Assembly (NCBI GenBank): GCA_041666485.1
Contig: JBAYGW010000005.1
Location: 3,654 to 67,653 of the forward strand
DNA length: 64,000 bases
Reading direction: 5' to 3'
DNA from: Patescibacteria group bacterium
GTDB taxonomy: Bacteria > Patescibacteriota > Patescibacteriia > UM-FILTER-42-10
A program made the position numbers and the translations under genes. The notes below the pieces were generated by a model. That model did not search any database, was not told where the DNA came from, and was given only the letters and a program-made list of their open reading frames with translations. Position 1 is the first letter of the stretch. Each line of letters begins with the position of its first letter. This document shows, in pieces, positions 9,142 to 59,897 of this stretch.

Positions 9142-9861
9142 TTACAAATTAGTTATAAGCTCCTGAGTGTATTTGATCAGCGCCCGGTTGTGGGAGTAAT
9201 TCATCCGCATCGGACCGAGGATTGCGATCAAACCCTCTTTATGGTCACTTTGAAATTTAGTTAAAATTGTACTGCATTGCTTGCCGAACGGATTATTTTT
9301 CCCCAGTAGAATATGCACGTCTCTGCTGATATCGTTGTAAATTCCCGCTACCGCTTCGTCCAGATGATCAATCACTTCGCTCAAATTGTAAATTAGATTC
9401 AGCTCGGCAAATTCCGGTTGTCGGAAAACATTGGTCAGACCGGTATAGTAAATATCTCTGGGCGAAAACCCCACCACCACCGCGCCGTTGGAAAGCGCCG
9501 CGACTTCCTTTGCCACCTGTTTCACCACCAATGAATCCTCGTTGTCTGATTTAAGAATTTCCTGCAACTGACTTTTGTGCTTTTCGCTTAAATCCTTTTC
9601 ATCCATAAAATTATCAATAAAAAAGCGGTAACCTTTTTCTGTTGGAATTCGTCCTGCTGAAGTATGGGGCTGAGTCAGATAGCCGTCTTTCTCCAGATCC
9701 ATCATTTCGTTGCGGATGGTGGCTGTAGACAAGTCAAAACCGCCTTTACCCACCAATAGGTTAGAACCAACCGGTATGGCGGTTTTAATATGCTGTTTGA
9801 TGATTGCCGCAAGCAGGGCTTTTTTACGATCGTTTAGCTCCATATTTGTATCCATTAGCAC
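9142..9861 (-). CDS. hrcA: Heat-inducible transcription repressor HrcA (short form). The true start is probably the downstream Met at 9843, because the CIRCE operator overlaps the first ATG.
   Basis: N-terminal winged-helix 'RKKALLAAIIKQHIKTAIPVGSNLL'. Position upstream of grpE-dnaK. CIRCE lies immediately 5'. Confidence 0.75.
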   Translation of the reverse strand: MLMDTNMELNDRKKALLAAIIKQHIKTAIPVGSNLLVGKGGFDLSTATIRNEMMDLEKDGYLTQPHTSAGRIPTEKGYRFFIDNFMDEKDLSEKHKSQLQEILKSDNEDSLVVKQVAKEVAALSNGAVVVGFSPRDIYYTGLTNVFRQPEFAELNLIYNLSEVIDHLDEAVAGIYNDISRDVHILLGKNNPFGKQCSTILTKFQSDHKEGLIAILGPMRMNYSHNRALIKYTQELITNL

Positions 9862-9881
9862 TCTTAATGGTAGAGTGCTAA
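9855..9881. promoter_or_regulatory. CIRCE operator (HrcA binding site), perfect inverted repeat TTAGCACTC-N9-GAGTGCTAA
   Basis: Exact match to the CIRCE consensus at 9855-9863 / 9873-9881. Confidence 0.9.
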
Positions 9882-9884
9882 TTC

Positions 9885-9912
9885 AGTATAGCATACCAAA
9901 AAAAGGGGTCAA
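9885..9912 (-). promoter_or_regulatory. Sigma-70-type promoter for the hrcA operon (TTGACC-16-TATACT on the minus strand), directly abutting CIRCE
   Basis: -35 at 9907-9912 (ggtcaa on plus strand), -10 at 9885-9890 (agtata on plus strand). Confidence 0.5.
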
Positions 9913-9919
9913 GTCCCCT
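9898..9919 (-). terminator. Hairpin AGGGG-tcaagt-CCCCT followed by a T-run on the minus strand. Likely terminator of the glycosyltransferase gene. Overlaps the hrcA -35.
   Basis: Seen at 9904-9919. The A7 tract at 9898-9904 on the plus strand gives a U-run on the minus strand. Confidence 0.45.
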
Positions 9920-9970
9920 GCTTTCCCTCGTTTAACTATAAATTAATTCAATCGGAAAGCGGTATTTTCC

Positions 9971-14431: not shown

Positions 14432-17400
14432 ATGAGTTTCGTCCATCTCCACACGCACAGCCATTACAGTCTGCTCGACGGACTGCCGAAAATCGGCGAT
14501 TTGGTTGCTAAGGCAAAAAAGCTGAATATGAACGCCCTGGCTTTGACCGACCATGGAGTTTTGTATGGTGCGATTGAATTTTTTCAAAAAGCGACGGAGG
14601 CCGGAATCAAACCGATAATCGGCGTGGAAGCCTATGTGGCAAAAAACGGAATGTACAACAAAAGATCCCGGGTTGATGACCGGCCGTACCATCTGATCCT
14701 GCTGGCCAAAAACCAGACCGGTTATCAGAATCTGCTGTCGCTTGTTACCAAAGCTCATCTGGAAGGATTTTATTACAAACCGCGCATTGACTGGGAGTTA
14801 CTGCAAAAACACTCCAAAGGCTTGATTGCCATGACCGCCTGTTTGCAGGGAGAGATACCGTCCGCGATCAGAAACAGCGATTTGAAACACGCCGAGGAAT
14901 TGATTAAAAACTATGCTTATTTGTTCGGTGAAGGAAATTTTTATCTGGAGCTGCAGCATCATCCCAGTATTGAACAGCAACAGCGTGTGAATGATGCACT
15001 GATTGGTCTGGGTAAAAAATTGAACGTCCCGCTGGTCGCAACCAATGACGTGCATTATCTGGAACCGGCGGATGCCTATCCGCAGGATGTGCTTTTGTGC
15101 ATCCAAATGAAAAGAAAGCAGGAAGAAACGGACCGGATTTCCTATGTCGGGGAAGATTTTTCCTTAAAGACACTAGAACAAATGGCCAGGGATTTCAGCC
15201 ACGTCCCGGAAGCGATAGAAAATACAGTTAAAATTGCCGAGAAGTGCAATTTGGACATTGAGTTCGGTAAAATAATGCTCCCGCATTTTGAAACGCCGAA
15301 GGAGAAAAATGCCGACGAATATTTACGGGAGCTCTGCTACCAAGGGATTAGCAAAAGATTCGGTATAAATATTCCGTCCGACCCGGCAAAACAGAATATT
15401 AATGATGACGAAACAAAAAAGATAATTGACCGCCTGGAATATGAATTAACGGTAATTCACAAAACTGGATTCGCCTCGTATTTTTTGATTGTGCAGGATT
15501 TTGTTAACTGGGCAAAAAGCAACAAAATCGTGGTTGGTCCGGGCAGAGGCTCCGCCGCCGGCAGTATTGTTTCCTATGTATTAAATATAACAAACCTTGA
15601 TCCCCTGCACTACGAGCTGATGTTTGAAAGATTTCTAAATCCCGAAAGAATTTCAATGCCTGATATTGATATTGATTTTGCCGATTCCCGCCGGAACGAA
15701 GTTATTACTTACGTGGAAGAAAAGTACGGCAAGGATCATGTGGCACAGATCATCACTTTCGGAACTATGGCCGCGAGAGCTGCCATCCGCGATGTCGGCA
15801 GAGTACAGGGACTGCCCTACAATTTTTGCGACCAAGTGGCAAAAATGATTCCGATGTTCATGACGCTGGATGATGCACTGAAAGCCGTACCGGAACTGAA
15901 AAGCTTGTACAGCACTGATCCGGAAGCAAAGAAGCTGATTGATACGGCCAAAAAACTGGAAGGTGTCGCCCGACATACCTCCACCCATGCCTGCGGAATT
16001 GTGATTGCTCCGGATCCGCTGGAGATGCATGTACCGACTCAATATGCCAGTCAGGATGACAAAACGATCATCACCCAGTATTCGCTGAACCCGATTGAGG
16101 ATCTGGGTCTTTTGAAAATGGACTTCCTCGGACTGAAGAACCTGACGATTCTGGAGAATGCCTTGGATATTATTTTTAAAACAACCGGTGAAGAAATAGA
16201 CATTGATAAAATTCCGCTGGATGACAAAAATGCTTTTAAGCTGTTCCAGAAGGGCGATACAATCGGTGTATTCCAGCTGGAAAGTTCCGGTATGACCCGT
16301 TACCTGAAGGAACTGAAACCGACTGATCTTGAAGACATCATCGCAATGGTTTCACTGTACCGGCCGGGACCGATGGAACTGATTCCGGATTATATTGCCG
16401 GCAAGCGCGGAAAGAAAAAAATTTCCTATCTCCATCCGAAACTGGAACCAATTTTAAATAAAACGTACGGCATTGCCGTTTATCAGGAACAGATTCTGCA
16501 GATTGCCCGCGATTTGTGCGGTTTCACATTGGGAGAAGCCGACATTCTGCGTAAGGCAATCGGTAAAAAAATCCGTTCTCTGCTGATGGAACAGCGGGAA
16601 AAATTTGTCCAGGGAGCAATCAATAACGGCATCCAGAAGCGCATCGCGGAAAAGCTGTTTGATTTCGTTGAGCCATTCGCCGAATACGGGTTTAACCGGT
16701 CCCATGCCGCCTGTTACGCAATGATCGCCTACCAGACAGCATACCTGAAAGCCAACTGGCCGGCTCAATTTCTGGCCGCACTTTTGACCGCTGACTACGG
16801 CAACACCGACCGGATTGCCGTGGAAGTTGCGGAAACAAAAAAACACGGTATTGAAGTTGTACCGCCGGATGTTAATGAAAGTTTTTCCACTTTTACCGTA
16901 GTTAAAGAAAGCCTGGACACCGAACAGCCGCGCATTCGTTTCGGACTGATGGCTATAAAGAATATCGGCACCAATATTGTCCGCACCATCATTGATGAAA
17001 GAAAAAAAGACGGTAAATATCAAAACCTGGAGGATTTTCTGAGACGCGTGCAAACAAAGGATTTAAACAAAAAGTCGCTGGAGAGTCTGATTAAGTGCGG
17101 AGCCATGGATGATTTCGGTAACCGCCAGACACTCCTGGATAATTTGGAATCAATATTAATCTACGCCAAAAACAGCCAGCGGGAAAGACTGAACGGCCAG
17201 ACCAACCTCTTCGGTATGCTGCCCGCTGAACACAGCCCGAAGCTGCGATTAACCGAATCAGAACCGGTGGATAAAAAAACAAGACTGGGTTGGGAAAAAC
17301 AGCTGCTGGGAATGTACATTTCAGAGCACCCGCTGGATGATTACCGGGAACAGCTGGAAAAATTGACCAGCCCGATCAATACACTAAGTAAAGGACTGAA

Positions 17401-17971: not shown

Positions 17972-19129
17972 ATGCCGGCAATTAAAAAAGCAAAAATAGG
18001 AAAACGCTATTCAAAAATGGCTGTGCTGTTTCTCGGCGTGGCTTTGGTTGCGGTCGTCGCTATTGTATATGTATCGCTCGCCAAAACAGTAATCACGATT
18101 ACGCCCAGTCCGGAAGCGGTCAGTATTTCCTTTGATTTACCTTTAACCGCCGGAACAAATCAGTCTGAAAGCACGTCATATTCCCTAACAGGGCGGTTAG
18201 TGGAAAAACAGATCAAGGAAACCAAGACATTTACCAATGTAACCAGTCAAAGCAAAGTGCAGGGCAAAGCAGAAGGCGTGGTTACAATCTACAATAATTA
18301 TGGAAGCAACCAGCCGTTAACCGCAACCACCCGTCTGCTTTCGGAAGACAATGTTCTGTTCCGAACCAAAGAAACAGTGACGGTCCCGGCAGGAGGACAG
18401 GTTGAGGTTGCTGTGGAAGCGGATCAGGCTAGCGAGGCGGGCAATATCGGTCCTTCCCGATTTACGATCGTCGCGCTTTGGAAAGGACTGCAGGACAAAA
18501 TTTATGCCGAAAGCTCGGACGCAATGTCTAACGGCCTCCGTGACGTAACAGTCGCAACGCTGGAAAATATCAATGACGCCAAGGAACAATTTGCGATTGA
18601 ATTGAAGGAAAAAGCGACGGAAGAATTATCCCGGGAAGTGGCAATTAATAATTCATCGGAAAAAATTCTGCCACAGGCAGTTACTTACCAAATCTTAGAG
18701 GAAGATGCCGATGTTGAACCAGATACCGAAGTGAATTCATTTGATATAACCAGTAAAATAAATGTCATCGCCGCGGTATTTGATGAAACCGAATTATTCA
18801 ACCACACCAAACAACTGCTCTCTGAGAGAGTACCGGCAAACAAAGAACTGGCCGGCACGGAAATTAGCCTTTTACAATACGAAATAAAATCTTACGACCT
18901 GGAAAATCAAACTGCTGTTTTGGATGTATCGCTAAACGGAACTACCTATGTTAAATTGACCAGTCCGATTTTTGACCGCGATAATCTTTTAAACCGTGAT
19001 AAGCAGGAAATCAAAACATATTTTCTGGATTTTCCGGAAATTCAAAATGTGGATGTGAAATTTTCTCCGTTTTGGGTGTTCCGCTCCCCTTCCTTGAAAG
19101 ATCATATTGAAATCGTAATTACCAAATAG
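17972..19129 (+). CDS. Hypothetical membrane-anchored protein
   Basis: 385 aa. N-terminal TM ('VLFLGVALVAVVAIVYVSLA'). Extracytoplasmic T/S/N-rich region. Confidence 0.4.
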   Translation: MPAIKKAKIGKRYSKMAVLFLGVALVAVVAIVYVSLAKTVITITPSPEAVSISFDLPLTAGTNQSESTSYSLTGRLVEKQIKETKTFTNVTSQSKVQGKAEGVVTIYNNYGSNQPLTATTRLLSEDNVLFRTKETVTVPAGGQVEVAVEADQASEAGNIGPSRFTIVALWKGLQDKIYAESSDAMSNGLRDVTVATLENINDAKEQFAIELKEKATEELSREVAINNSSEKILPQAVTYQILEEDADVEPDTEVNSFDITSKINVIAAVFDETELFNHTKQLLSERVPANKELAGTEISLLQYEIKSYDLENQTAVLDVSLNGTTYVKLTSPIFDRDNLLNRDKQEIKTYFLDFPEIQNVDVKFSPFWVFRSPSLKDHIEIVITK

Positions 19130-22740: not shown

Positions 22741-24027
22741 ATGCCGAAATATTACAACCACATCCTGGGCTGCCAGATGAACAAGCTGGACGCGGAAAAG
22801 ATGGATGCCCTACTAGATGCGATGGGTTTCACATCAACCACTAAGGAATCAGAAGCGGATCTGATCAATGTTTTGGCGTGTTCAGTCAGACAGTCCGCTA
22901 TCAACCGGATCGACGGCAAATTGAAAGTTTGGAATAAACTGCGGAAAGAAAAACCGCTAACCACCCTTCTGACCGGATGTGTACTGCCTAAAGACAAAAA
23001 AGGAATCGGCAAGCAGTTTGACATTTTACTGGACATGTCGCAATTGCACACACTCCCCCAGCTTTTGAAAAAGCGCATGCAGGATATTGAGGACATTTTC
23101 CCTGACAGCGACTATTTCAAACTGCCGACCAAACACAAATCTCCTTTTCAGGCATTTGTAACAATCCAAAACGGGTGTAATAAATTTTGCCGGTATTGCG
23201 CCGTCCCCTACACCAGGGGCAGAGAAATTTCGAGACCCGCCGACCAGATTATTGCAGAGGTTAAAGACCTGGTTGAAAATGGATATAAAGAAATTACCCT
23301 GCTCGGCCAAACTGTAAATTCCTATATCAATCCGGAAAAAGGAACAGTTAAATCATTTGCTGATTTGCTTAAAGTATTGGGGCAAATCAAAGGCGATTTC
23401 TGGATTCGTTTTATTTCTCCATACCCGACTGATTTTTCTGATGAATTGATCGACGTTATAGTCAGTGATAAAAAAATATGCCCGCATCTGCACATACCGG
23501 TTCAAGCAGGCAGTAACGACATGCTGAAAAAAATGCTCCGGAAATACACGAGGGAAGAATATTTGGACCTGATCAAAAGGATCCGTAACAAAATGCCGGA
23601 TGTGGCAATAACTACGGATATCATCGTCGGGTTCTGCGATGAAACAGAAGAGAATTTTGCAGACACATTGGACTTGTACGAAAAAGTTAAATTTGATATG
23701 GCATACTTAGCGCAGTATTCCAAAAGACCCGGCACACAAGCGACAAAACTTTTTAAAGACAATATTCCGCAGAAAGTGAAAAAGCAACGGGAAGTGGCTT
23801 TGAATGAAGTGGTAAAGAAATATGCGCTTCTGAATAATCAGAAACTACTGAATAAAACAGTTACAGTCCTGCCGGAGAACATGAGAAAGGGTTTGTTGTT
23901 CGGGAAGACTGATAATAATAAACCAATCCAAATACAACGCGGAACCAAGGATCTGATTGGAAAATTTATTTCCGTCAAAGTCACCAAAGTTAATCCGTGG
24001 AGTTTGGAAGGCAGTTTAAAAAAATAA
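22741..24027 (+). CDS. miaB: tRNA methylthiotransferase MiaB (radical SAM)
   Basis: N-terminal 'GCQMN'. Radical-SAM 'CNKFCRYCAVP'. TRAM-like C-terminus. Confidence 0.85.
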   Translation: MPKYYNHILGCQMNKLDAEKMDALLDAMGFTSTTKESEADLINVLACSVRQSAINRIDGKLKVWNKLRKEKPLTTLLTGCVLPKDKKGIGKQFDILLDMSQLHTLPQLLKKRMQDIEDIFPDSDYFKLPTKHKSPFQAFVTIQNGCNKFCRYCAVPYTRGREISRPADQIIAEVKDLVENGYKEITLLGQTVNSYINPEKGTVKSFADLLKVLGQIKGDFWIRFISPYPTDFSDELIDVIVSDKKICPHLHIPVQAGSNDMLKKMLRKYTREEYLDLIKRIRNKMPDVAITTDIIVGFCDETEENFADTLDLYEKVKFDMAYLAQYSKRPGTQATKLFKDNIPQKVKKQREVALNEVVKKYALLNNQKLLNKTVTVLPENMRKGLLFGKTDNNKPIQIQRGTKDLIGKFISVKVTKVNPWSLEGSLKK

Positions 24028-24051
24028 GCCTTGTCCAAGCGGGAGCAAAGC

Positions 24052-24570
24052 TTAATGATTGAAAAGTGAGAACAGGCGGTATGCCGCGAGAGCTGTGGTC
24101 AGAACACCGACCATGTTCCCAGTGAAAATGAGCAGATACGCGCGCGGCAGTTTCAGAAGCCGCGCTGTGATGACGGATGCCGTGACCGCGTACGGCAGAA
24201 GCGGGATGGCGACCAGGATGAAGATCACGACGCTCGGGTACCGGCTGTTCACGATGTAGCTTGTGAGCATGTCGCGGAAACGTTGCAGACCGGCGTTGAT
24301 TGCGAAAAGCCGCAGCTCCATCTGGTGTGAACGGCCATTGGCGCCGTTCTGCCGGAGGACGCGTCTGGTGAGCGCAATCGTCTGCTCGCCCAGCCACAGC
24401 AGCATCTCGGGGAAGTAGAACATCAGCGACATCCCGATGCTCGAGCCGATGAGCAGTGTGAGGAACCCCTTCCAGAAGCCATACCCGGCCAGAAAGACAG
24501 CAAACGCCGTCACCTCTTCCTGCCAGATGGCCGACCAAACGAAGAATAGCTCGTCCAACAAGAAAACCAC
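24052..24570 (-). CDS. Hypothetical membrane protein encoded in a GC-rich island (possibly DedA/VTT-like)
   Basis: 172 aa, 4-5 TM segments. Codon usage and GC content differ sharply from the neighbours. The family call is weak. Confidence 0.35.
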   Translation of the reverse strand: MVFLLDELFFVWSAIWQEEVTAFAVFLAGYGFWKGFLTLLIGSSIGMSLMFYFPEMLLWLGEQTIALTRRVLRQNGANGRSHQMELRLFAINAGLQRFRDMLTSYIVNSRYPSVVIFILVAIPLLPYAVTASVITARLLKLPRAYLLIFTGNMVGVLTTALAAYRLFSLFNH

Positions 24571-24692
24571 GTGTTGACCTCCTGTCAGGGTGAATCCAAA
24601 GGCAGGAACGAAGTATCATAATTTAACATAAACTTATTTGTAGGTCAACGTTTAAAAACAGTAACCATTGCGAGGAGTCCCGTTAGTAATCT

Positions 24693-24764
24693 GTCATGCT
24701 GAACTAGTTTCAGCATCTCCGGTTCCATAGCGATGAGGGATTCTGAAACGAGTTCAGAATGACA
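24693..24764. repeat. 72-bp palindromic MITE/REP-like element, copy A
   Basis: GTCATGCTGAAC...GTTCAGAATGAC terminal inverted repeats with two internal hairpins. Near-identical arms to copy B at 36978-37047. Confidence 0.6.
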
Positions 24765-24826
24765 ATTGATAGCACTCGGGGGGGGCATCCCGCTCTTGTC
24801 TAAACAATCGTATCGATAACAAACAA

Positions 24827-25705
24827 ATGAAAAAACTAATCGTAATCCTAGGTCCAACCGCATCCGGAAAAACCGGCATGTCTTTAGCATTGGCAAAAAA
24901 ATTTAAAGGCTTCGTTATCTCCGCAGACTCGCGTCAGATTTACCGCGGAATGGATATCGGCACCGGAAAATTGACCAGGGATAAATGGCAAGGAATCACC
25001 CACCGCATGATTGATATTATTGATCCCGATCAGGAATACAGTCTGGCGCAGTTTCAAAAAACAGTATTTGCCATTATTAATGAAGAGCAAAACTTATTGC
25101 CGATCATGGTCGGCGGAACCGGACTTTATATTCAGTCGATCGTGGATAATCTGGATATTCCCAAAGGAGGAATGGATAAAGTTTTGCGCAAGGAATTGGA
25201 TGCAAAAACACCTGAGGAACTTTTCAAAATGCTGATTCAGCTGGACTATAAATCCGCCCAGGAAATAGATATTAATAATAAAAGAAGGCTGATCCGGGCG
25301 ATAGAAGTTTTCAAAGTTTCCGGCGAAAAGTATTCGGAAAAAAAAGGAAAAAACAGTCCCCTAGTGCAGGCACTGCAAATCGGCATTAAATTATCCAGAG
25401 AAGAAATGTACCGGCGCATTGACCGGCGGGTGGATGAAATGATCCAAGCAGGCCTTTTGGATGAAGTAAAAACGCTTGGTGAAAAGTTCGGCTTTGATAT
25501 CCCCTCCATGTCCGCCATCGGCTACCAACAACTGTCCGCGTATTTTAAAAAGGAAATTTCATTAGCTGAAGCGGTGGCCCAAATCAAGAACGACTCACAT
25601 CATTATGCCAAAAGGCAGATGACCTGGTTTAAGCGCGACCATCGGATCAAATGGATAACATCCGTGGATGAAGCGGAAGAGCTGGTTGCTGATTTTCTGG
25701 GGTAA
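24827..25705 (+). CDS. miaA: tRNA dimethylallyltransferase
   Basis: P-loop 'GPTASGKT'. IPPT family layout. 292 aa. Confidence 0.9.
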   Translation: MKKLIVILGPTASGKTGMSLALAKKFKGFVISADSRQIYRGMDIGTGKLTRDKWQGITHRMIDIIDPDQEYSLAQFQKTVFAIINEEQNLLPIMVGGTGLYIQSIVDNLDIPKGGMDKVLRKELDAKTPEELFKMLIQLDYKSAQEIDINNKRRLIRAIEVFKVSGEKYSEKKGKNSPLVQALQIGIKLSREEMYRRIDRRVDEMIQAGLLDEVKTLGEKFGFDIPSMSAIGYQQLSAYFKKEISLAEAVAQIKNDSHHYAKRQMTWFKRDHRIKWITSVDEAEELVADFLG

Positions 25706-26561: not shown

Positions 26562-27632
26562 ATGAAAAATGGTAAGCATAAGAATAATGTAGTAGAGCTT
26601 TTTTCAGGTTGCGGTGGTTTTTCTTGTGGTTTTGAAAAAGCGGGATTTAATATTTTTTTAGGAGTCGATAATGATCAACCATCTTTAGATACATTTAAAA
26701 AAAATCATCAAAATTCAGTAGTCATGAATTTAGATTTATCACGAAATAATGCAATCGATAAAATTATTAAAGTTACTAATGGAACGAAGGTTGATATTAT
26801 AATTGCTGGTCCTCCATGCCAGGGTTTCTCTTTAACTGGAACCAGACTAAAAGATGATAAAAGGAATAAATTATTTAATACCGTTTTTGATTTAGCAGAA
26901 CATTTAAAACCAAAAGCAATCATAATAGAAAACGTTCCAGGCCTCGAAACACTTTATGGAGGTGTAGCAAAAAAAAGGATTTTAGAAAGATATGATGAGT
27001 TAGGTTATGAAGTAACTAGCCATGTACTTTTTGCACCAGATTTTGGTGTACCACAGATTAGAAAAAGAATTGTTTTTGTAGGAATATTAAAAAAAATTGG
27101 TAAAAAATTCATTTTTTCAAAACCATTGCTTAATAAAGACAATTATGTAAATTGTGAAGAGGCAATTGGTGACTTGCCAAAACGAGAAAAAGAGTTTGGG
27201 AATGAAGTTGATAAGTATATAAAGGCACCAAAAACTAAATACCAAAAAGAGATGAGGGGAAAAACAATAAAGTTATTTAATCACGTAAGCACAAAACATT
27301 CACCCCATGTTATTGATGTTATCTCCCAAGTACCGGAAGGTGGCAACTACAAAAACTTACCGAAAGGTGTTGGAGAAACAAGAAAATTCAACGAGGCATG
27401 GACACGTTATCATAGTAAAAAACCATCAAAAACAATAGATACGGGTCATAGAAATCATTTTCATTACAAATATAATCGTGTGCCTACTGTTAGAGAAAAC
27501 GCACGTTTACAGTCTTTTCCTGATCATTTTATATTCACTGGAAGCAAAACTCAACAATATAGGCAGGTTGGTAACGCTGTACCTCCACTATTAGCATATT
27601 CTATTGCAAAAGAATTATTGAAGTATATTTAA
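26562..27632 (+). CDS. DNA (cytosine-5)-methyltransferase, copy 1
   Basis: Motif I 'LFSGCGGFSCGF', motif IV 'GPPCQGFS', motif VI 'ENVPGL', motif X 'GNAVPP'. Very AT-rich gene. Confidence 0.9.
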   Translation: MKNGKHKNNVVELFSGCGGFSCGFEKAGFNIFLGVDNDQPSLDTFKKNHQNSVVMNLDLSRNNAIDKIIKVTNGTKVDIIIAGPPCQGFSLTGTRLKDDKRNKLFNTVFDLAEHLKPKAIIIENVPGLETLYGGVAKKRILERYDELGYEVTSHVLFAPDFGVPQIRKRIVFVGILKKIGKKFIFSKPLLNKDNYVNCEEAIGDLPKREKEFGNEVDKYIKAPKTKYQKEMRGKTIKLFNHVSTKHSPHVIDVISQVPEGGNYKNLPKGVGETRKFNEAWTRYHSKKPSKTIDTGHRNHFHYKYNRVPTVRENARLQSFPDHFIFTGSKTQQYRQVGNAVPPLLAYSIAKELLKYI

Positions 27633-27636
27633 CTCT

Positions 27637-28866
27637 ATGTCTAGAAAAAGAAAAGTTAATGTAATAGACTTATTTGCAGGTTGCGGTGGATTAACTGATG
27701 GTTTTGAGTATAAAAATAATTACAATATCTTAGCTACTGTTGAATGGGATAAACAATGCTGCAATACGTTGCAAAATAGATTATCTAAAAAATGGGGTTA
27801 TAAAAATGCGGCAGATTTGGTATTAAACTTTGATATTCAAAGAATAAAAGAATTACTAACTGGTTGGAAAAATGATGTAAAATACGGAAATAATGTCGGC
27901 CTTAAAAAACTAATAGGGAAAAATAAAGTTGATGTAATAGTAGGCGGACCACCATGTCAGGCATACTCTGTGGCCGGAAGAATTAGAGATAAAAATGGGA
28001 TGCACACAGACTATAGGAATTTTCTTTTTGAAAGTTACATTGCTTTAGTTAAAGAATTTAAACCTAAATTCTTTATTTTTGAAAACGTGCCTGGAATATT
28101 GAGTGCAAAACCTGGTGGAATCTCAATTATTGACAGAATAAGAGAATCATTTGGTAAAATAGGATACACCATTGCTGATGACTTAAGAAAAATAGCTATT
28201 GTTGACAGCTCTGATTTTGGTGTTCCTCAAATTAGAAAAAGAGTCATTATTTTAGGTGTAAACAAAAACGTTTATCGTAATAATGCCAACGAAATTATAA
28301 GGGATTTCTACTTCAATATTTTACCTTCCTTGAAATTTAAAAATAAGATGACTGTTAAAGATGCCTTGAATGACTTACCTAAATTCTTTCCATTGAATGA
28401 AAATAAACATAATAATCAATCCCACTCAATTTCCAAAAAATCAAATATATATAATCACATACCTAGATTTCATAGTAAAAGAGATATTGAAATATTTAAA
28501 ATACTTACTAATGATATTAAAAAAAGAGAAAATAAGTATACTTCTATTGCAGAGCTAAAAAAATTGTACTTCAAATTTACTGGAAAAAATTCTAATATCC
28601 ACAAATATCATGTTTTAAAAGAAGATGAACCAAGTAACACTATACCTGCTCACTTATATAAAGACGGTTTAAGACATATTCACCCTGACCCAAAACAAGC
28701 AAGAAGTATAACAGTAAGGGAGGCAGCTAGATTACAAAGCTTTGAAGATAATTTTGAATTTTTAGGAACCATGGGAGATCAATATAAAATGATTGGAAAT
28801 GCCGTCCCCCCAAAATTAGCATATGCTATTTCTGAAGCATTGTATAATTTAATTGAAAAATATTAA
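27637..28866 (+). CDS. DNA (cytosine-5)-methyltransferase, copy 2 (larger target-recognition region)
   Basis: Motif I 'LFAGCGGLTDGF', motif IV 'GGPPCQAYS', motif VI 'ENVPGIL', motif X 'GNAVPP'. Confidence 0.9.
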   Translation: MSRKRKVNVIDLFAGCGGLTDGFEYKNNYNILATVEWDKQCCNTLQNRLSKKWGYKNAADLVLNFDIQRIKELLTGWKNDVKYGNNVGLKKLIGKNKVDVIVGGPPCQAYSVAGRIRDKNGMHTDYRNFLFESYIALVKEFKPKFFIFENVPGILSAKPGGISIIDRIRESFGKIGYTIADDLRKIAIVDSSDFGVPQIRKRVIILGVNKNVYRNNANEIIRDFYFNILPSLKFKNKMTVKDALNDLPKFFPLNENKHNNQSHSISKKSNIYNHIPRFHSKRDIEIFKILTNDIKKRENKYTSIAELKKLYFKFTGKNSNIHKYHVLKEDEPSNTIPAHLYKDGLRHIHPDPKQARSITVREAARLQSFEDNFEFLGTMGDQYKMIGNAVPPKLAYAISEALYNLIEKY

Positions 28867-28883
28867 GCAATAATTTATATTTT

Positions 28884-29870
28884 ATGCCAAAATTTTACAT
28901 AAAAAAATTAACCCCCCAAGAACTTGGATATCGTTCAGGTAGACCAAAAGGTGGCGGTAGATATTTTTATGTTTCAAAGGATTGTTTAGAATTTTTCCCC
29001 CCTTTATCTGAAAACATACTCAATGATTCAGTTTTAATACCTATAATTCCTCCATTCTCGAATAATAAAGTATATAGTAATTTTGTTTATCATAATGATA
29101 AACATGCAATTGAAAACGGTACGAGGGATGAATATAGACTCTATCTTAATAAACAGATTGATCCTAATGGTGAATATTTTAGCATTGACGACATTGTTGT
29201 TTTTGAAAAACAAGAAGAAAAAATTGATCAAGAAATTATTCCAACATATTTTTTAAACAGATTTTTAGCGAGTGCACCAGAATACAATATCTTAAACAAT
29301 ATAATTGAAAAATCTGAAATCAGAGGTGGACATGCACTATATGATGGTGAGCTTTCTGTTTCAACACAAACAACTAAATTTTCTGCAGATAATCGAGTAA
29401 TAATTCCTGAAGAAGTTGAAAAAGAAGTAAAAGATAAACTTACTGAAAACGAAGAAGAAATGGGTGCACACTTATTTAATTCAATAAGTTTTAGGGATTT
29501 TGTCTTAAATAGTTATGGTTATAAATGTGCAATCACAAATAAATCAATCACATGGAAAAATCTTAATAATTTAGAGGCTGCACACATTAAACCGAAATCA
29601 CACAGAGGAAGTTTTCTGCCATGTAATGGAATAGCCTTGTCAAGAGATATGCACTGGGCATTTGATAAAGGATTTATCTCCATAAACGACGATTATACAG
29701 TTTTAGTACACAAGGACGTGAAAGAAACAATGCTTAAAGAAATAGACGGAAAGAAAATTAACTTACCAATAGAAGATTTCTTTAAACCAAACAAAGAGTA
29801 TCTTAAACATCACAGAGAAAATGTATTCGGTCTATTTCATCATTCAGGATCGTTAAGGTCAATTAATTAA
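28884..29870 (+). CDS. Putative restriction endonuclease, HNH (His-Me finger) family, cognate to the adjacent methyltransferases
   Basis: C-terminal 'YKCAITN...LEAAHIKPKSH...NGIALSRDMHWAFDKG' HNH signature. N-terminal region resembles a DNA-binding module. Operonic with the two MTases. Confidence 0.6.
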   Translation: MPKFYIKKLTPQELGYRSGRPKGGGRYFYVSKDCLEFFPPLSENILNDSVLIPIIPPFSNNKVYSNFVYHNDKHAIENGTRDEYRLYLNKQIDPNGEYFSIDDIVVFEKQEEKIDQEIIPTYFLNRFLASAPEYNILNNIIEKSEIRGGHALYDGELSVSTQTTKFSADNRVIIPEEVEKEVKDKLTENEEEMGAHLFNSISFRDFVLNSYGYKCAITNKSITWKNLNNLEAAHIKPKSHRGSFLPCNGIALSRDMHWAFDKGFISINDDYTVLVHKDVKETMLKEIDGKKINLPIEDFFKPNKEYLKHHRENVFGLFHHSGSLRSIN

Positions 29871-30122
29871 ATCAACAAATGTATTTTTAGATTAGGCCGA
29901 ACAGATGCGGATAAATACCCATTACAATACCACTCATGACAAAAATACAAAAAATTGTGGAATATTTCAAAATAAGCAATATGTTCAAATAACAGCAAGT
30001 TATCAGACATAATTTTTATATAATTTTGTTAATTTCCCACGTAACTTGTAGAATTCAGAAATAATGAATAAAGTTTCATTATCATTCAACCAAAACAATA
30101 TTCACAAATAACCATAGATACT

Positions 30123-31406
30123 ATGAAAACACGTTTTCAAACAATGTCTATAAATCGTCTCTTTAAGTATCGTGAAAGAATCGATTTAGAACCGTCTTTT
30201 CAGCGTGAGAAAGTTTGGTCCAGTGACAAGCAACAACACTTCCTAGACACACTTCTAAAAGGTTGGGGAGTGCCAAAATTATACCTTCAACTAGATGAAA
30301 GCCCATCGGGTAAAAGAAACTACATCTGTATTGATGGGAAGCAACGCCTTACATCAGTTTTTTCTTTTTTAGAAAATCGTATACCTCTTAGTAAAAAATA
30401 CTCAGGTGAATTTGGTGGCAAATATTATCTTGATTTACCAGATAAAATTCAGAATAAATTTGATGACTATAAACTTCATATCGAGGAAGTAACTGATCCG
30501 GAAGAAAAGGAAATGAGCGAGCTTTTTAAGCGGTTGCAGCTTGGCTCACCACTCAACTCGGGAGAGAAGCTAATGGCTATAGTTGGAGATATGCACAATC
30601 TTGTAAAGAAATATTCCGTCCATCCATTTTTTAAAAAGAAAGTGGCATTACCGAATACTAGATATGCTCATTTTACTGTATGTGCTCAGGTTTGTTGCTT
30701 AGAGACTGTTGGGATTACAGATATCCCACTTCGCAAATTAGAATTGTTTTTTTCGAGCCACGAGGATTTTCGTAGCAGTGGTTTTGAACTTAAAACAAAG
30801 ATACAAAAAATTAAAGAAGTGCTAGATTATCTCAACAAAATGTTCGCCGCAGAATCACCTGACCTTCGCAATAGAGCAAGTGTAGTATCTATTTATCTAC
30901 TTGTATCTGATTTGATAGATAAGGGAAATATTAAAGGGAAGGAAAATAAATTAAGACGGTTCTTTGCAACATTTACAAAAGAATTACGAAATGAAATTGA
31001 AAAAGGTGTTGGGGCAAAGGACGCACAATTTATAAACTATCAGTCAGCGATTATTCAGGGTGCTGATGATCAAAAGTCTATCAAACTTAGGAGAGAAATA
31101 TTATTGAATAAACTTTATAGTTACGATCCTTTTTTCTATCGAATTATGCATCCACAACTTTCTCCAATTGAAAAATTTAGTAATTTATATGGGAACGTGG
31201 AAGATCGTCTCGGAAACTCGCAGCGAGTAGATGATTGGCTGGTAAGTAAAAAACCGAGAATCAAAACCGTGACTTGTCGAGGTAAAAAAGAGACGTTTAT
31301 AACACATATTAGACATTGCATCCACCATAATAAACATGGTAAATACACAAAATTAGATCTTCGTAATGCAACAAACTTATTAAATCAAATAGGCACTCCA
31401 ACCTAA
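30123..31406 (+). CDS. DUF262 (ParB/Srx-like) domain protein with a His-rich C-terminus. GmrSD-like candidate type IV restriction enzyme.
   Basis: DUF262 blocks 'EPSFQREKVWS', 'LLKGWGVPKLYL', 'IDGKQRLTS'. C-terminal 'HIRHCIHHNKHG...NATNLL' may be a degenerate His-Me finger. Confidence 0.6.
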   Translation: MKTRFQTMSINRLFKYRERIDLEPSFQREKVWSSDKQQHFLDTLLKGWGVPKLYLQLDESPSGKRNYICIDGKQRLTSVFSFLENRIPLSKKYSGEFGGKYYLDLPDKIQNKFDDYKLHIEEVTDPEEKEMSELFKRLQLGSPLNSGEKLMAIVGDMHNLVKKYSVHPFFKKKVALPNTRYAHFTVCAQVCCLETVGITDIPLRKLELFFSSHEDFRSSGFELKTKIQKIKEVLDYLNKMFAAESPDLRNRASVVSIYLLVSDLIDKGNIKGKENKLRRFFATFTKELRNEIEKGVGAKDAQFINYQSAIIQGADDQKSIKLRREILLNKLYSYDPFFYRIMHPQLSPIEKFSNLYGNVEDRLGNSQRVDDWLVSKKPRIKTVTCRGKKETFITHIRHCIHHNKHGKYTKLDLRNATNLLNQIGTPT

Positions 31407-36927: not shown

Positions 36928-36977
36928 AAATAATTCCCTAATTTCTTTAAAGTCTAAACAAATTCACATTTTCTCAG

Positions 36978-37047
36978 GTCATCCTGAACTCGTTTCAGGA
37001 TCTATACTTGTTAATGGCGGAGACTCTGAAACAAGTTCAGAGTGACA
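36978..37047. repeat. 72-bp palindromic MITE/REP-like element, copy B (pyrD-pyrK spacer)
   Basis: GTCATCCTGAAC...GTTCAGAGTGAC. Both internal hairpins are conserved with copy A. The central ~22 nt differ. Confidence 0.6.
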
Positions 37048-37086
37048 TAAACAAAGTCAGAATTTGTAACTATTTTAATTAGCATT

Positions 37087-37137
37087 CAATTACCAATTAC
37101 ATATTACCAGTTACTAATTACAAATTCCCAATTACTT
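37087..37137. repeat. TTACCAATTAC-type short repeat array (reverse orientation of the 32421 array), overlapping the pyrD 3' end
   Basis: 'caattaccaattacatattaccagttactaattacaaattcccaattactta'. Confidence 0.55.
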
Positions 37138-54803: not shown

Positions 54804-55007
54804 ATAACACTAAAGAATCTTATCTCATCGTAGTTTTTTGAAGAGATTTCCACCTAGATTGTAACAGATTTTCGTGATTTCAGCAAACGATTTTTTGGGG
54901 CAAAAAAGGTCATTTTTCCAAAGAAAAAAGGCTCCGAACATTCATGGGAGTGAATGGGAACCTTTCGGGAAACGAGGGGTCGAGCATAGCTCGACAAAGG
55001 TGCGATG

Positions 55008-55442
55008 CTACGCGATACGCTGGACTTCGAATCCGACGTATTCGCGCTTGATGAACTTGCCTCTGAAGGTCGTGGTCGTATGGTACTTCTCCTGATAGAC
55101 CAGGATCACCAGCTCGCCCGGCTGCCTTTGGGTGATGTGGTCTGCGGGTACGCAGACCAAGCCCACCGGCGTGTCGATGACCATGACCACCTGGTCGCAC
55201 GTGGCAACCGTTGTTACGAACTTGCGTCCGTTAGTGGCCGCCGTGGCAACTCCCAGGTTCTGAGTGAATAGGCCGTGGAACACGACCTGCCCCGAGATCG
55301 CCTGTGATGCGGAGTGCTCCACGACGATCTTGTTGTCGAAGATCCCCGCGACCAGGAGGATCAGGGCGATGGCCAACAGGACAATTAGAAGGCCCTTCTG
55401 GAACCGATAGCGAAGCTCCGCCTCATGAGAATCGTATGCCAT
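55008..55442 (-). CDS. Hypothetical N-terminally membrane-anchored protein in GC-rich island 2
   Basis: 144 aa. TM 'LLIVLLAIALILLVAGIF'. GC-rich codon usage unlike the neighbours. Confidence 0.4.
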   Translation of the reverse strand: MAYDSHEAELRYRFQKGLLIVLLAIALILLVAGIFDNKIVVEHSASQAISGQVVFHGLFTQNLGVATAATNGRKFVTTVATCDQVVMVIDTPVGLVCVPADHITQRQPGELVILVYQEKYHTTTTFRGKFIKREYVGFEVQRIA

Positions 55443-55503
55443 GACTCACACTCTCCTAATTCGTCGACCGTGTTGCTATCCGAGCTGATTCCCAGATAGC
55501 GTG

Positions 55504-55983
55504 TTAGTTGCCGACGGGGAGCGCAGCGAGCAGGGCCCGGGGTTCGTTTTCCGGGCGGAGGTGCCGGGGGTGGATTTTCAGAACACGGGTCCTGCTTCCT
55601 TCGCTGACCACGGTGGTGACCACAGCCGTTGCCGGCCGAGTTGAGTCGGCGGGGCAAATCTCCACCAACTGTTTGGCCACCACGAGTATGGCCCTGCCGT
55701 TGTAGCTCGACAGGTTGTCGGAGCTGATAGAGACCATGTACGCGGTATTCGCGTACTTGTTCTTGAGGAGATTGACCGTCAGGAAGGATTCCAGCCGGTA
55801 CTCCCCCTCGGTGAGCTGGGACAGCCCGATCACCGGGATGCTGTACGCACGCAGATTCTTGATCTGCTGGCGGTAGACGAGACTGCTCCCGATCCCGAGG
55901 AAGATGGCGAAGAAGGCGAGGACAACCCAGAAACGGGTGGCGGTGTACCAGTGGTACCGCTTGGCGAGCTGCAAGTTAGGCAT
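55504..55983 (-). CDS. Hypothetical N-terminally membrane-anchored protein in GC-rich island 2 (possible paralog of 55008-55442)
   Basis: 159 aa. Same topology. Shared 'CPAD/VPAD' region. Confidence 0.4.
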   Translation of the reverse strand: MPNLQLAKRYHWYTATRFWVVLAFFAIFLGIGSSLVYRQQIKNLRAYSIPVIGLSQLTEGEYRLESFLTVNLLKNKYANTAYMVSISSDNLSSYNGRAILVVAKQLVEICPADSTRPATAVVTTVVSEGSRTRVLKIHPRHLRPENEPRALLAALPVGN

Positions 55984-56102
55984 GATCTACACCTTTCACT
56001 TCCGTGTGTGGAAACACCCTCACGCGCAAAGGCGTTTCAGAGAAGAACCTGATCCACGCGTGACCGAGTATACTAGCACATCTCAACCGGATTGTCAAGC
56101 CA

Positions 56103-56186
56103 CGTCAGAAGGTACGATTGCGCAATCGCACCTTCTGACGGTGTTAAGACTCAATCAAAACAGGCGCGACATCAATGTCGCGCCTG
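56103..56186. repeat. Two long GC-rich palindromes: a 40-bp near-perfect one (CGTCAGAAGGTACGATTGCG/CGCAATCGcACCTTCTGACG) and an 11-bp-stem hairpin (CAGGCGCGACAT-caa-ATGTCGCGCCTG)
   Basis: Seen directly. They lie between the GC island and the 3' end of the pilus operon. The second hairpin is likely a terminator for the minus-strand pilus operon. Confidence 0.6.
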
Positions 56187-56207
56187 CACACTAAAATAAA
56201 TATTAAA

Positions 56208-57248
56208 CTATTCCTCTATCCAGCCGTCTTGACTGATGTTGTAGGAAAGAATTATATTGGCAATTTGGTTATAAATACCCTCCAGGTCGGAAGCGGATGG
56301 TGCGTAGAAATACATGTTAGGATCTGTGGCAATATCGTTACGTAAAAAGTCTTCATTCACGCTACTCCCTAACCCGATCGCAAAAATCAAAATCCCGACG
56401 TTGTCCGCTTCATCCGCCTTTGTTCTGGCATAAAGTTCCGCGGCGCTGATTGGTGACGGCACATTTGCTACACCATCGGTTAACAGAATTTCAACTTTGA
56501 TATCCCCGGACGGCACATTTGTCTGTATATTAGTTGTAGCCAATCCAATTGCATCGCCAATATTGGTATTGCCGGTCGGCGTCGGTATTATATTTACCGC
56601 TGCCTGCGCGGCGGCAAAATCATTTGAGGAAGAAAAATTTAGTTGCGCTGATTGATTATAAGAAACAACTCCGATCTTATCATAAAGTGGATCCATTTCA
56701 TCAATAAACGATTTCGCCGCTTCTTTGGCAAAAATCATCGGTCGTGGACCCCACAACCCGCCATTATTTATACATTCTATGGAGTTGAGATACGCGGGAT
56801 TCGTGCAACCATCACCATCATCATCCATGCTACCAGAACGGTCTATTATGTGATAAATGGTAGTGTCGTTTCTTGTGGCAGAAGCACCCGCATCGGCATA
56901 ATAACTGGCAACAGTACGAACGCTATTGGCAAACGTTCCGGTTCCAACTAATTTGCCGGAAGCGACACCGGCATTATGCTGTGCCACAACTTCACACTCT
57001 ACCCCGTCAATATTGATTGTTGTTCCAGTATAGTTTTCGTCTGTGCGTAATTGCAGATATCCTTCTTCAATGCAGGTTTGAGCTGAGTAAAATGCTTTTT
57101 CCGTGGAAATAGAATTTCTGGCGATAATTTTTTCTCTAGTGGCCGTAACATTGTTGGAAAAGACAAATAAAAACATAACAATCATCGTAAAGAAAACCAT
57201 TAAAATGGTGATACTGCCTTCCTGATTTCTTTTTCTAAAATTATTCAT
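56208..57248 (-). CDS. Pilus-associated protein with N-terminal prepilin-like TM segment and C-terminal von Willebrand factor A (MIDAS) domain
   Basis: 'IIDRSGSMDDDG' DxSxS MIDAS motif. N-terminal hydrophobic helix. Last gene of the pilus operon. Confidence 0.6.
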   Translation of the reverse strand: MNNFRKRNQEGSITILMVFFTMIVMFLFVFSNNVTATREKIIARNSISTEKAFYSAQTCIEEGYLQLRTDENYTGTTINIDGVECEVVAQHNAGVASGKLVGTGTFANSVRTVASYYADAGASATRNDTTIYHIIDRSGSMDDDGDGCTNPAYLNSIECINNGGLWGPRPMIFAKEAAKSFIDEMDPLYDKIGVVSYNQSAQLNFSSSNDFAAAQAAVNIIPTPTGNTNIGDAIGLATTNIQTNVPSGDIKVEILLTDGVANVPSPISAAELYARTKADEADNVGILIFAIGLGSSVNEDFLRNDIATDPNMYFYAPSASDLEGIYNQIANIILSYNISQDGWIEE

Positions 57249-57249
57249 G

Positions 57250-57762
57250 TTACTGTTGTCTGAATGATATCGTAGAATTTATATCAGACTCTCCTGTTCC
57301 TTTTTCAACAATCAAATTAATCCTAAGAGATGAAGAGACTTTCTTAAACGAAACTAGCGAAACATTTACATCTTCATCAGTTAAAAGCTTCATACTAGAC
57401 GGAGCGGGAATCAAATTCATATCCTGTCCATAATACATTTTCCCGCCATTTAATTCATATACTGTAATAATGTTGTCGGGGGCAACAGGGTTAGTATAAA
57501 AATGAGAATAGACTATCGCTTTTGTTCCGCTTGCCTGGATGTCCACATCATAGGCATTACGCAAGGAATAAGTCATTTTTTCAATAATTTGTCTGGCATT
57601 GTACTGCGCTGTCTGCTGATTGTTGGTCAGTACTCGCTGTTCGGTACTGTTTACCAGAAACATAGTCAGCATCAGGGTAACGATACTGGAAATACCCAAA
57701 TACACCATCAACTCCATCAGGGTCGTACCTCGCTGATTAAATTTGATCAGTCTTAATTTCAT
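57250..57762 (-). CDS. Minor (pseudo)pilin, class III signal peptide
   Basis: 'RGTTLMELMVYLGI' prepilin cleavage/methylation motif. Confidence 0.6.
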   Translation of the reverse strand: MKLRLIKFNQRGTTLMELMVYLGISSIVTLMLTMFLVNSTEQRVLTNNQQTAQYNARQIIEKMTYSLRNAYDVDIQASGTKAIVYSHFYTNPVAPDNIITVYELNGGKMYYGQDMNLIPAPSSMKLLTDEDVNVSLVSFKKVSSSLRINLIVEKGTGESDINSTISFRQQ

Positions 57763-58247
57763 TGTCCTAACCAGTTAGTAATATAGCTGGCAAATGAGAT
57801 ATCTCTCATATTATCTCTCTCCTGCCATTCCACTTTTACGTCAAGCCGCCTTGCTTGATTATCTTCCGTCCCCGATGCACTCAAATTACCGGCCGCGTCT
57901 CTATAAGCTTTGCTAATATGTATCGTCCGATAATACTTGCCGTTAAGTTCCTGTGCCGGGTTTGCCGGATCACTTGGCAATATTTCAAATGTATTACCGT
58001 TTTCTTGAATCTGATAAAAACCTTCGGATAAAACGCTAATCAAATTCCAGTCTGACTGTTTTATAGCAAAAAGCTGTTCCATTGATTCTTTAGCATAAGC
58101 TGTCGCTTCCACTTCTTGTTTTGAAGCAATCACTAACTGGTGATTGACTCCGATCAGATTACCGATCGCCAAAGAAAAAACCGCTGCCAGACTGATACTT
58201 AGCAGTACTTCAATCAACAGACTTCCTTTTTGATTATGCCAGTTCAT
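57759..58247 (-). CDS. Minor (pseudo)pilin
   Basis: 'KGSLLIEVLLSISL' prepilin motif. Confidence 0.6.
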   Translation of the reverse strand: MNWHNQKGSLLIEVLLSISLAAVFSLAIGNLIGVNHQLVIASKQEVEATAYAKESMEQLFAIKQSDWNLISVLSEGFYQIQENGNTFEILPSDPANPAQELNGKYYRTIHISKAYRDAAGNLSASGTEDNQARRLDVKVEWQERDNMRDISFASYITNWLGQ

Positions 58248-58684
58248 AAAGATAATATTTTAACTGTTCCCGGTTTCCTGATTTCAATACGGGAACTATT
58301 TACCCCCGCATAAAGGATAAATAAATCCAAATCCTGATCCGGGATGCCTGTTAGCTTATTAAAAACTATGTCGTCACTTGCCGAACACGTGAATTCTTGC
58401 GGAAAGTTGTATGTTTCTGATACTAATTCCGGATTCACTGATAATAAATCTATTGCATTGCCGCTGCAACGCACCGCCCATGCACGACCTGATTCCGCTG
58501 ACTGCGCTCTGCTTTGTGCTTCACGAACTATCTGCGCGACCTTATCTGCTTCAGTTACAGCTTGTGCACCTGTTTTACCTTTTGATAAAGAAATCACCGC
58601 CACACCGGCAATCAGACTGACTGCGGTTATGACGATCAGTACCTCAATTACAGTGAAGCCAAATTGTTTTTTCAGGTTTTTCAT
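58244..58684 (-). CDS. Type IV (pseudo)pilin / major pilin candidate
   Basis: 'KKQFGFTVIEVLIVITAV' canonical G-F-T-x-x-E motif. Confidence 0.7.
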   Translation of the reverse strand: MKNLKKQFGFTVIEVLIVITAVSLIAGVAVISLSKGKTGAQAVTEADKVAQIVREAQSRAQSAESGRAWAVRCSGNAIDLLSVNPELVSETYNFPQEFTCSASDDIVFNKLTGIPDQDLDLFILYAGVNSSRIEIRKPGTVKILSL

Positions 58685-59889: not shown

Positions 59890-59897
59890 ATTTTTGA

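Follow-up and report, generated by a model that had tools for sequence, protein, structure and literature searches.

Two copies of a short palindromic repeat lie between genes in the 64-kb stretch of Patescibacteria (CPR) DNA analysed here, which we call the window; the names on pyrK homologues place its host near Candidatus Kerfeldbacteria. The window is the same sequence as ENA contig ERZ27249449 k141_146642. Copy A (24693-24763, 71 bp) is flanked by two divergent gene starts, that of a conserved ORF of 209 aa with unknown function (23990-24619, minus strand) and that of miaA (24827, plus strand); it is not in the miaB/miaA spacer to which an earlier, sequence-only reading of this DNA had assigned it. 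Copy B (36978-37046, 69 bp) does lie where that reading had put it, in the pyrD-pyrK spacer: pyrD stops at 37132 and pyrK starts at 36927, and the two genes are on the minus strand in an otherwise tightly packed pyrB-pyrI-pyrD-pyrK-pyrC operon. Both copies of the palindromic element were thus found at the places proposed for them, each one base shorter than claimed, and these two dimers are the only ones in the 64 kb. Their contexts differ, copy A occupying a divergent promoter region and copy B an intra-operon spacer.

Each copy consists of two inverted 25-nt arms (GTCAYNCTGAACTNGTTTCAGNRTC) around an unrelated centre of 19-21 nt. The left arm of copy A (24693-24717, plus strand) reads GTCATGCTGAACTAGTTTCAGCATC after a T, which gives a TGTC tag, and carries the oriented form of the motif on the top strand; it is followed by a 21-nt spacer (24718-24738) with no kinship to the spacer of copy B and by the right arm (24739-24763, minus strand), the bottom strand of which reads GTCATTCTGAACTCGTTTCAGAATC, again with a TGTC tag. 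In copy B the left arm (36978-37002, plus strand) reads GTCATCCTGAACTCGTTTCAGGATC after a G and so has an unusual GGTC tag, the spacer (37003-37021) is 19 nt long, and the right arm (37022-37046, minus strand) reads GTCACTCTGAACTTGTTTCAGAGTC on the bottom strand with a TGTC tag. The tags point outward in both copies (head-to-head), and since the arms are inverted each DNA strand bears exactly one arm in the oriented form.

Alignment of the arms of both copies in both orientations showed that the shared ends extend over 25 nt, with 19 of the 25 positions the same in all four arms. The terminal inverted repeats described earlier are therefore real, although their length is 25 nt and not 12 bp. 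Exactly four occurrences of the core CTGAACNNGTTTCAG were found in the window, all of them inside these arms, while shuffled sequence gave a mean of 1.22 matches to the core with two mismatches permitted. The centres (21 and 19 nt) are unrelated, as had been noted; the same had been said of the flanks, which is mostly correct except that copy B has an extra weak inverted repeat, about 20 nt long, outside each arm.

The pyrD-pyrK spacer that holds copy B (36928-37131) measures 204 nt and is missing from four relatives. Copy A is held by a composite insertion upstream of miaA (24664-24826), which is missing whole from relative L124; its outer parts, ACCATTGCGAGG (24664-24675) and AATTGATAGCACTCGGGGGGGGCATCCCGCTC (from 24764), are common to relative L123. 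Judging from the sequence, copy B and the insert around it uncouple the formerly overlapping pyrD and pyrK, and copy B is predicted to put a stable hairpin into the pyr operon transcript (-32.7 kcal/mol when the sense strand is folded as RNA). We rejected an intrinsic terminator at copy B because no U-tract follows the hairpin.

Two other regions of the window may be recorded here. Between miaA and an OTCase-like gene (26562-31406) there are two DNA cytosine methylase genes (PF00145), an HNH_2 nuclease and a GmrSD_N protein; this block is missing from relatives L123 and L124 and for that reason looks like a strain-specific restriction or defence island. A 385-aa protein (17972-19129) with a weak match to Baseplate_J (PF04865) adjoins DNA polymerase III alpha, an odd place for this domain, and is conserved in relatives (L124).

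Arm hairpins, covariation and occurrence in other genomes

Every arm comprises a GTC tag that stays unpaired, a stem of 8 bp with a loop of 5 nt, and a C, likewise unpaired, straight after the stem. Folded as single-stranded DNA the arms reach -5.3 to -6.7 kcal/mol each: -6.7 for the left arm of copy A, in which the tag and trailing C stay unpaired beside the 8-bp stem and 5-nt loop, -5.3 for its right arm and -6.1 for either arm of copy B. The stem starts with AT in three arms and with AC...GT in one, and the tails of the four arms are ATCTCC, ATCCCT, ATCTAT and GTCTCC.

Positions 5-6 and 22-23 co-vary across the four window arms (TG/CA, TT/AA, TC/GA and CT/AG). Because these positions change together within an arm, each window arm is a hairpin of its own. 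The whole element, as RNA or as DNA, can also make one long hairpin from both arms, and as RNA both strands reach -28.7 to -32.7 kcal/mol with z-scores of -4.4 to -6.1; in the long hairpin, mismatches would fall exactly at positions 5-6 and 22-23.

We then scanned one genome per prokaryotic species for the pattern GTCANNCTGAACNNGTTTCAGNNTC. Positions 5, 6, 22 and 23 were left free in this pattern, so that the matches provide an unbiased test of the arm hairpin. Watson-Crick pairing was found at both free pairs in 149 of 154 arms elsewhere, with eight dinucleotide combinations. Among unique arms, 21 of 26 were fully paired against a shuffle mean of 4.3 (0 of 10,000 shuffles reached the observed value), and pair counting registered 24 double-sided changes where shuffles had 6.9 (0 of 500). 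The covariation signal was lost when the partner columns were shifted by one to three. Where both arms of a dimer matched the pattern, the two were of different types in 17 of 23 cases, and separate arm hairpins are favoured over the long hairpin for this reason. One long hairpin as the selected structure was accordingly rejected: the covarying positions are usually not the same in the two arms of a dimer, and each arm is internally compensated.

In the genome scan the pattern was present in stretches from many phyla, at least 120 in all, where an arithmetic estimate (19 fixed bases, about 1.2e12 positions) leads to an expectation of about 4 chance matches. A scan of viral contigs likewise gave at least 120 stretches. 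A genome-wide pattern search, which the sequence-only reading had proposed, thus revealed a large family. Among the genome matches listed are Sphingomonadales, Bacteroidia, Treponema, Elusimicrobiota, Ignavibacteria, Nitrospirota, Campylobacterota, Gastranaerophilales, Rickettsia, several Patescibacteria and a Nanoarchaeota MAG. With a generic arm detector, which requires GTCA followed by a perfect stem of 7 bp and a C, the 120 listed genome loci yielded 242 arms against 5 in shuffles, the partner arms often having other stems such as CCGAAAC or CCGGATC. The 240 loci contain 100 unique dimers with their tags outward, whose spacers have a median length of 35.5 nt. In this set 62% of arms have C before GTC and 35% have T (one or the other in 96%), and across arms GTC and C25 were invariant.

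Tandem arrays of dimers, in units of about 80-110 bp arranged head to tail and reminiscent of BIME-like clusters, were observed in Ignavibacterium, Treponema and Lutibacter (L039:1500-1700, L053:60-300, L076:1180-1420 and 2660-2990).

Published relatives and the small GIY-YIG genes beside the arms

A literature search by repeat sequences and encoded peptides returned unrelated primer matches alone. By architecture, two published descriptions correspond to the family. Di Nocera, De Gregorio and Rocco (2013, BMC Genomics 14:522; PMC3733652) defined a superfamily of CGTC-tagged REPs, in which the tag is CGTC, often TGTC and also CCTC, the stems are of 8-9 bp and start with complementary A/T, the loops have 4-5 nt and an unpaired 3-nt tail has the consensus CCA. 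These units occur in five phyla, mostly as head-to-head dimers with tags outward, spacers of 20-100 bp and often different halves (heterodimers), and include the Neisseria dRS3 and Rickettsia RPE-4 and RPE-6 repeats; no associated gene or transposase was reported and no RAYT flanked by CGTC units (PMC3733652). The window arms resemble them in the TGTC tag (three arms), a stem of 8 bp that opens with an A-T and a T-A pair, a loop of 5 nt and a short unpaired tail, and their family resembles them in the predominance of head-to-head dimers, often heterodimers. They differ in that the tails are CTC, CCC, CTA and CTC, only the first C being conserved, and not CCA; in addition, one arm has GGTC and the 19-21-nt spacers are at the short end of the range.

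The second description is that of the Neisseria Transformation Sequence, NTS (CGTCATTCCCGCGMAVGCGGGAATCYRG; Chenal et al. 2025, Nat Commun 16:2388; PMC11893778). NTS and its relatives, the Ssn-related motifs (SRM), lie on either side of the gene for SsnA, a single-domain GIY-YIG protein of 94 aa that binds the NTS hairpin as single-stranded DNA only, cuts a few nucleotides upstream of it and does not bind RNA. Cleavage depends critically on the three bases that precede the palindrome, binding on the C directly after it, and activity of the Neisseria SsnA is lost when the palindrome sequence is changed (PMC11893778). The arms here share with SRM and NTS the oriented hairpin, formed by an imperfect palindrome of about 20-50 nt, with (H)GTC(W)(Y) on its 5' side and C directly on its 3' side, the intergenic location and the occurrence in multiple copies, and the critical positions of NTS coincide with GTC and C25, which do not vary between arms.

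The published SRM search string, HGTCWYN(0-2)YYVSBRHN(0-5)WNVSBRGN(0-2)RNCYNB (PMC11893778), gave no match anywhere in the window, the four arms included. It breaks down in the stem, since CTGAAC is incompatible with YYVSBR, whereas the flanking parts of the string do match: in the 5' flank HGTCWY, W is A and Y is T or C in all four arms and H is T in three (G in the left arm of copy B), and the tail RNCYNB fits all four. The stem is AT-richer (CTGAA/TTCAG) than in SRM and NTS, and the host is a member of the Patescibacteria (CPR). By analogy with the sequence requirement of the Neisseria enzyme, a cognate Ssn for the CTGAAC stem would have to be assumed to differ from SsnA in specificity.

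Canonical NTS arms (TGTCATTCCCGCGAAGGCGGGAATCCAG) adjoin CTGAAC arms, and are interchangeable with them, in a Rickettsia endosymbiont (L058), a Sulfurovaceae MAG (L035) and a Nanoarchaeota MAG (L020); at the Rickettsia locus one arm of either type together form a dimer. A canonical NTS-type dimer is also found in L126, a Kerfeldbacteria relative of the window. The Nanoarchaeota contig (JAHIPG010000372.1), on which a CTGAAC arm and a canonical NTS arm occur, is labelled archaeal (DPANN), and the arms there could represent a genuine transfer or a binning error.

To identify genes that accompany the arms we clustered the ORFs around them in the 120 listed genome loci. ORFs of about 100 aa were found in four loci, and no other recurrent neighbour emerged from this clustering. 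The four proteins are GIY-YIG proteins (Pfam PF01541, E-values 1e-15 to 2e-18), and arms abut small GIY-YIG ORFs at five motif-found loci, one of these a viral contig. The association was then tested from the protein side by scanning metagenomes with an alignment of small GIY-YIG proteins, from which 80 loci were kept. At least one arm lay within 300 nt of the Ssn-like gene in 67 of the 80, with arms on both sides in 46. Close to the gene the arm density was 3.9 per kb, further away 0.21 per kb; CTGAA[CT] stems were present in 56 of the 80 loci, and CTGAAC was the commonest stem hexamer (87 of 172 arms).

At 27 of the 80 loci the arms and the gene form a compact arm-gene-arm unit of 335-444 bp, which comprises, in order, a tag and hairpin, a short leader, a gene for a single-domain GIY-YIG protein of about 95-105 aa, and an inverted hairpin and tag; one of the 27 has canonical NTS arms. 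This repeat-gene-repeat arrangement, seen in other genomes, is a further likeness to SRM. The outer ends of the window copies are the same as those of the compact units, with 19-21 nt where the units have the gene. In about 14 of the 27 units (L261, L271, L286, L294, L301, L313 and others) the ssn ORF ends in a duplicated half-arm, ...AGTTCAGCATGA followed by GATGCTGAAAC..., so that the stop codon and the C-terminal residues of the protein come from repeat sequence.

A homologue search with a Sphingomonas-type Ssn-like protein gave thousands of close relatives, mostly on short contigs, and no named Neisseria SsnA among them. In a PDB profile search the nearest solved structures were the UPF0213 structural-genomics entries 1zg2 and 1ywl, and UvrC; no SsnA structure was found in that search. 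No ssn homologue was detected in the window by tblastn or HMM or in the contig gene tables (window positions 4.8-66 kb), and none at the relatives' loci by tblastn and HMM. The window does contain a type IV pilus or type II secretion-like cluster (55000-61565) with a T2SSE/MshEN ATPase, a T2SSF platform protein, a VWA protein and several small ORFs without Pfam matches; since the Neisseria Ssn acts on single-stranded DNA entering the cell, this cluster may have a bearing on the repeats.

Insertion sites in related genomes

In four relatives (L124/L125, L330, L331 and L332) the stop of pyrD and the start of pyrK overlap or all but touch, compared with the 204 nt in the window; pyrK identity to the window is 82% in L124/L125, 83% in L330 and L331 and 73% in L332. 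At the miaA site, 36 nt separate miaA from the ORF of unknown function in L124 against 207 nt in the window. Both window sites are therefore empty in L124/L125, the nearest of the relatives with empty sites, and three further relatives are without the pyrD-pyrK insertion. In the closest relative, L123 (pyrK 89% identical), both sites, compared with window 24664-24795 and 36928-37131, are filled by a different 125-nt GTCA...TGAC dimer with stems of the TTCGAG/TTCGAC type. The two L123 dimers (9760-9960 and 17270-17400) are versions of each other in opposite orientation, and the right boundary of the miaA site (...TGAC/AATTGAT) is identical in L123 and the window.

Since the sites are empty in L124/L125 and differently filled in L123, comparison of these sequences indicates that the elements arrived by insertion, that the insertions are a recent, derived state, and that the occupant of a site can differ between close relatives. 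Each of the two genomes, window and L123, has its own dimer type at both sites, a pattern which suggests replacement or homogenisation within a genome.

Target-site duplications, which the sequence-only reading had proposed to look for, were not seen: there was no excess of 2-8-bp direct repeats around the 100 unique dimers and none at either window copy. Longer repeats do occur around the inserts. A second, outer repeat surrounds the dimers (window 24664-24675 and 24764-24795; L123:9763-9777 and 9945-9960); it reads ACCATTGCGAG... (inverse ...TCGCAATGGT in L123) plus a G8 hairpin, CGGGGGGGGCATCCCG, and resembles GTCATTGCGAG-type repeats but begins ACC. The dimers seem to be nested inside this outer repeat. 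AT-rich GTAATTGGTAAT-like direct repeats are present between the pyrD stop and copy B (window 37047-37131), a perfect 12-nt copy of the GTAATTGGTAAT-like motif stands on both sides of the whole insertion in L123 (9743-9757 and 9976-9990), and on the far side of the insert upstream of miaA stands a degenerate copy of the region around the miaA start (window ~24649-24663). The flanking repeats and this degenerate copy could have arisen as long target duplications in the original insertion.

Assignment of the element and rival explanations

We consider each window copy to be a gene-less head-to-head dimer of Ssn-related motifs and hence a member of the CGTC/TGTC-tagged REP superfamily, and would put the probability of this assignment at about 85%. 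Because the published SRM string fails in all four arms, we file them, on their sequence, as an unlisted type of the SRM family and not as a match to its published definition. The REP-type family suggested by the sequence-only reading is thereby upheld, while the suggestion of a classic MITE is not, as no target-site duplications were found. Nor does the description as novel stand, given the correspondence of the family to the CGTC/TGTC-tagged REPs (PMC3733652) and to NTS and the Ssn-related motifs (PMC11893778).

Among the other mobile elements with which these dimers could be identified, the closest in outline are REPINs, dimers of classical REPs mobilised by RAYT, an IS200/IS605-like Y1 transposase. 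REPINs (Bertels and Rainey 2011; PMC3116915) are inverted dimers of self-folding repeats with a variable spacer, the same layout as here, and the REPIN/RAYT system further shares a repeat-flanked single-copy gene, many gene-less copies and the lack of target duplication, which is also what single-strand transposition would produce. REPINs, however, have the tag GTAG (GT[A/G]G) and an HUH/Y1 transposase as enzyme, where the repeats described here have (C/T)GTC and a GIY-YIG nuclease, and we do not count them as members of that system. The only gene family enriched beside the arms is the small GIY-YIG protein, no Y1_Tnp domain or Y1 transposase is listed in the contig gene tables (window positions 4.8-66 kb), no arm-flanked RAYT was seen in about 330 loci, and none flanked by CGTC units had been found previously (PMC3733652). 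A REPIN is thus extremely improbable, and the RAYT or IS200-like partner that had been anticipated is replaced by a gene of another type, for the Ssn nuclease of about 100 aa. A conventional MITE, that is a deletion derivative of a DDE-transposase IS recognised through its terminal inverted repeats, would account for the 25-bp inverted ends, the small size, the intergenic location and the insertion polymorphism. It has scarcely any likelihood in our view, as flanking direct repeats are not in excess around the 100 unique dimers, each presumed terminal repeat is palindromic in its own right and carries compensatory changes within it, the sequence types of a dimer's two arms often differ, and the full-length counterpart bears a GIY-YIG gene of about 100 aa and not a DDE transposase.

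Two further explanations would place selection on a local function. The sequence-only reading had offered a structured small RNA with two stem-loops, and a small or cis-regulatory RNA selected at the RNA level would agree with the good folding of both strands as RNA, with the necessary transcription of copy B within the pyr operon and with the argument that many REPs act in transcripts (PMC3733652). We found no Rfam match, either at gathering thresholds in the whole window or at E<=10 in 24600-24850, and the promoter and terminator scans gave nothing attributable to the elements. The covariation favours arms that fold alone, a tagged arm is present on each DNA strand, a symmetry needless for an RNA, and SsnA does not bind RNA (PMC11893778). 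The two copies lie in different transcriptional contexts, and their sites are empty in close relatives and therefore have no conserved regulatory role. An RNA of this kind is very improbable. A double-stranded binding site for a dimeric regulator would fit the palindrome and the position of copy A in a divergent promoter region; yet the compensating stem pairs, with eight combinations, indicate that the fold is kept and not base-specific contacts to the duplex, the same arm stands beside unrelated genes in many phyla, and the sites are missing from close relatives. The probability of such an operator is very small.

As to how an SRM dimer might work, the behaviour of the Neisseria SsnA and three homologues suggests that a cognate Ssn would bind the arm hairpin and trailing C when the DNA is single-stranded, as in replication, repair or DNA uptake, and would then cut a few nucleotides 5' of the tag. 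With inverted arms there would be one cleavable site per strand, at the outer edge of the element. Spread may occur by nuclease-triggered copying or by a transposition-like process that leaves no target duplication, and the copies in the window genome may be passive remnants; a mechanism of repeat movement was demonstrated neither in PMC3733652 nor in PMC11893778. More tentatively, and with rather low probability, the 335-444-bp arm-ssn-arm unit could be a minimal autonomous selfish element whose own GIY-YIG nuclease drives its copying, the gene-less dimers being cassettes swapped at fixed sites, for example by nuclease-triggered repair from another copy. Such an element and its cassettes would explain the different dimers at the same two sites in two CPR relatives (pyrK 89% identical) with an identical right boundary at the miaA site, and also the near-identical 25-nt arm from Sphingomonas to Bacteroidota, Spirochaetes, CPR, the Nanoarchaeota MAG and viral contigs.

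The window repeat, as an SRM dimer, is a routine member of a described superfamily and no new class of element. What may be new is the CTGAAC arm type that the published SRM string misses, the near-identity of these arms across phyla and viral contigs, the compact arm-gene-arm units of this type, a CPR host with clean empty-site comparisons, and the occurrence of different dimers at the same sites in close relatives. As the string misses the widespread CTGAAC type, published SRM counts probably underestimate the family. The compact units of about 350 bp represent a candidate enzyme-site pair of new specificity for single-strand DNA tools. The pairs of filled and empty sites in CPR indicate that such dimers insert, even between translationally coupled genes, and the presence of different dimers at the same sites in close relatives bears on how these repeats spread.
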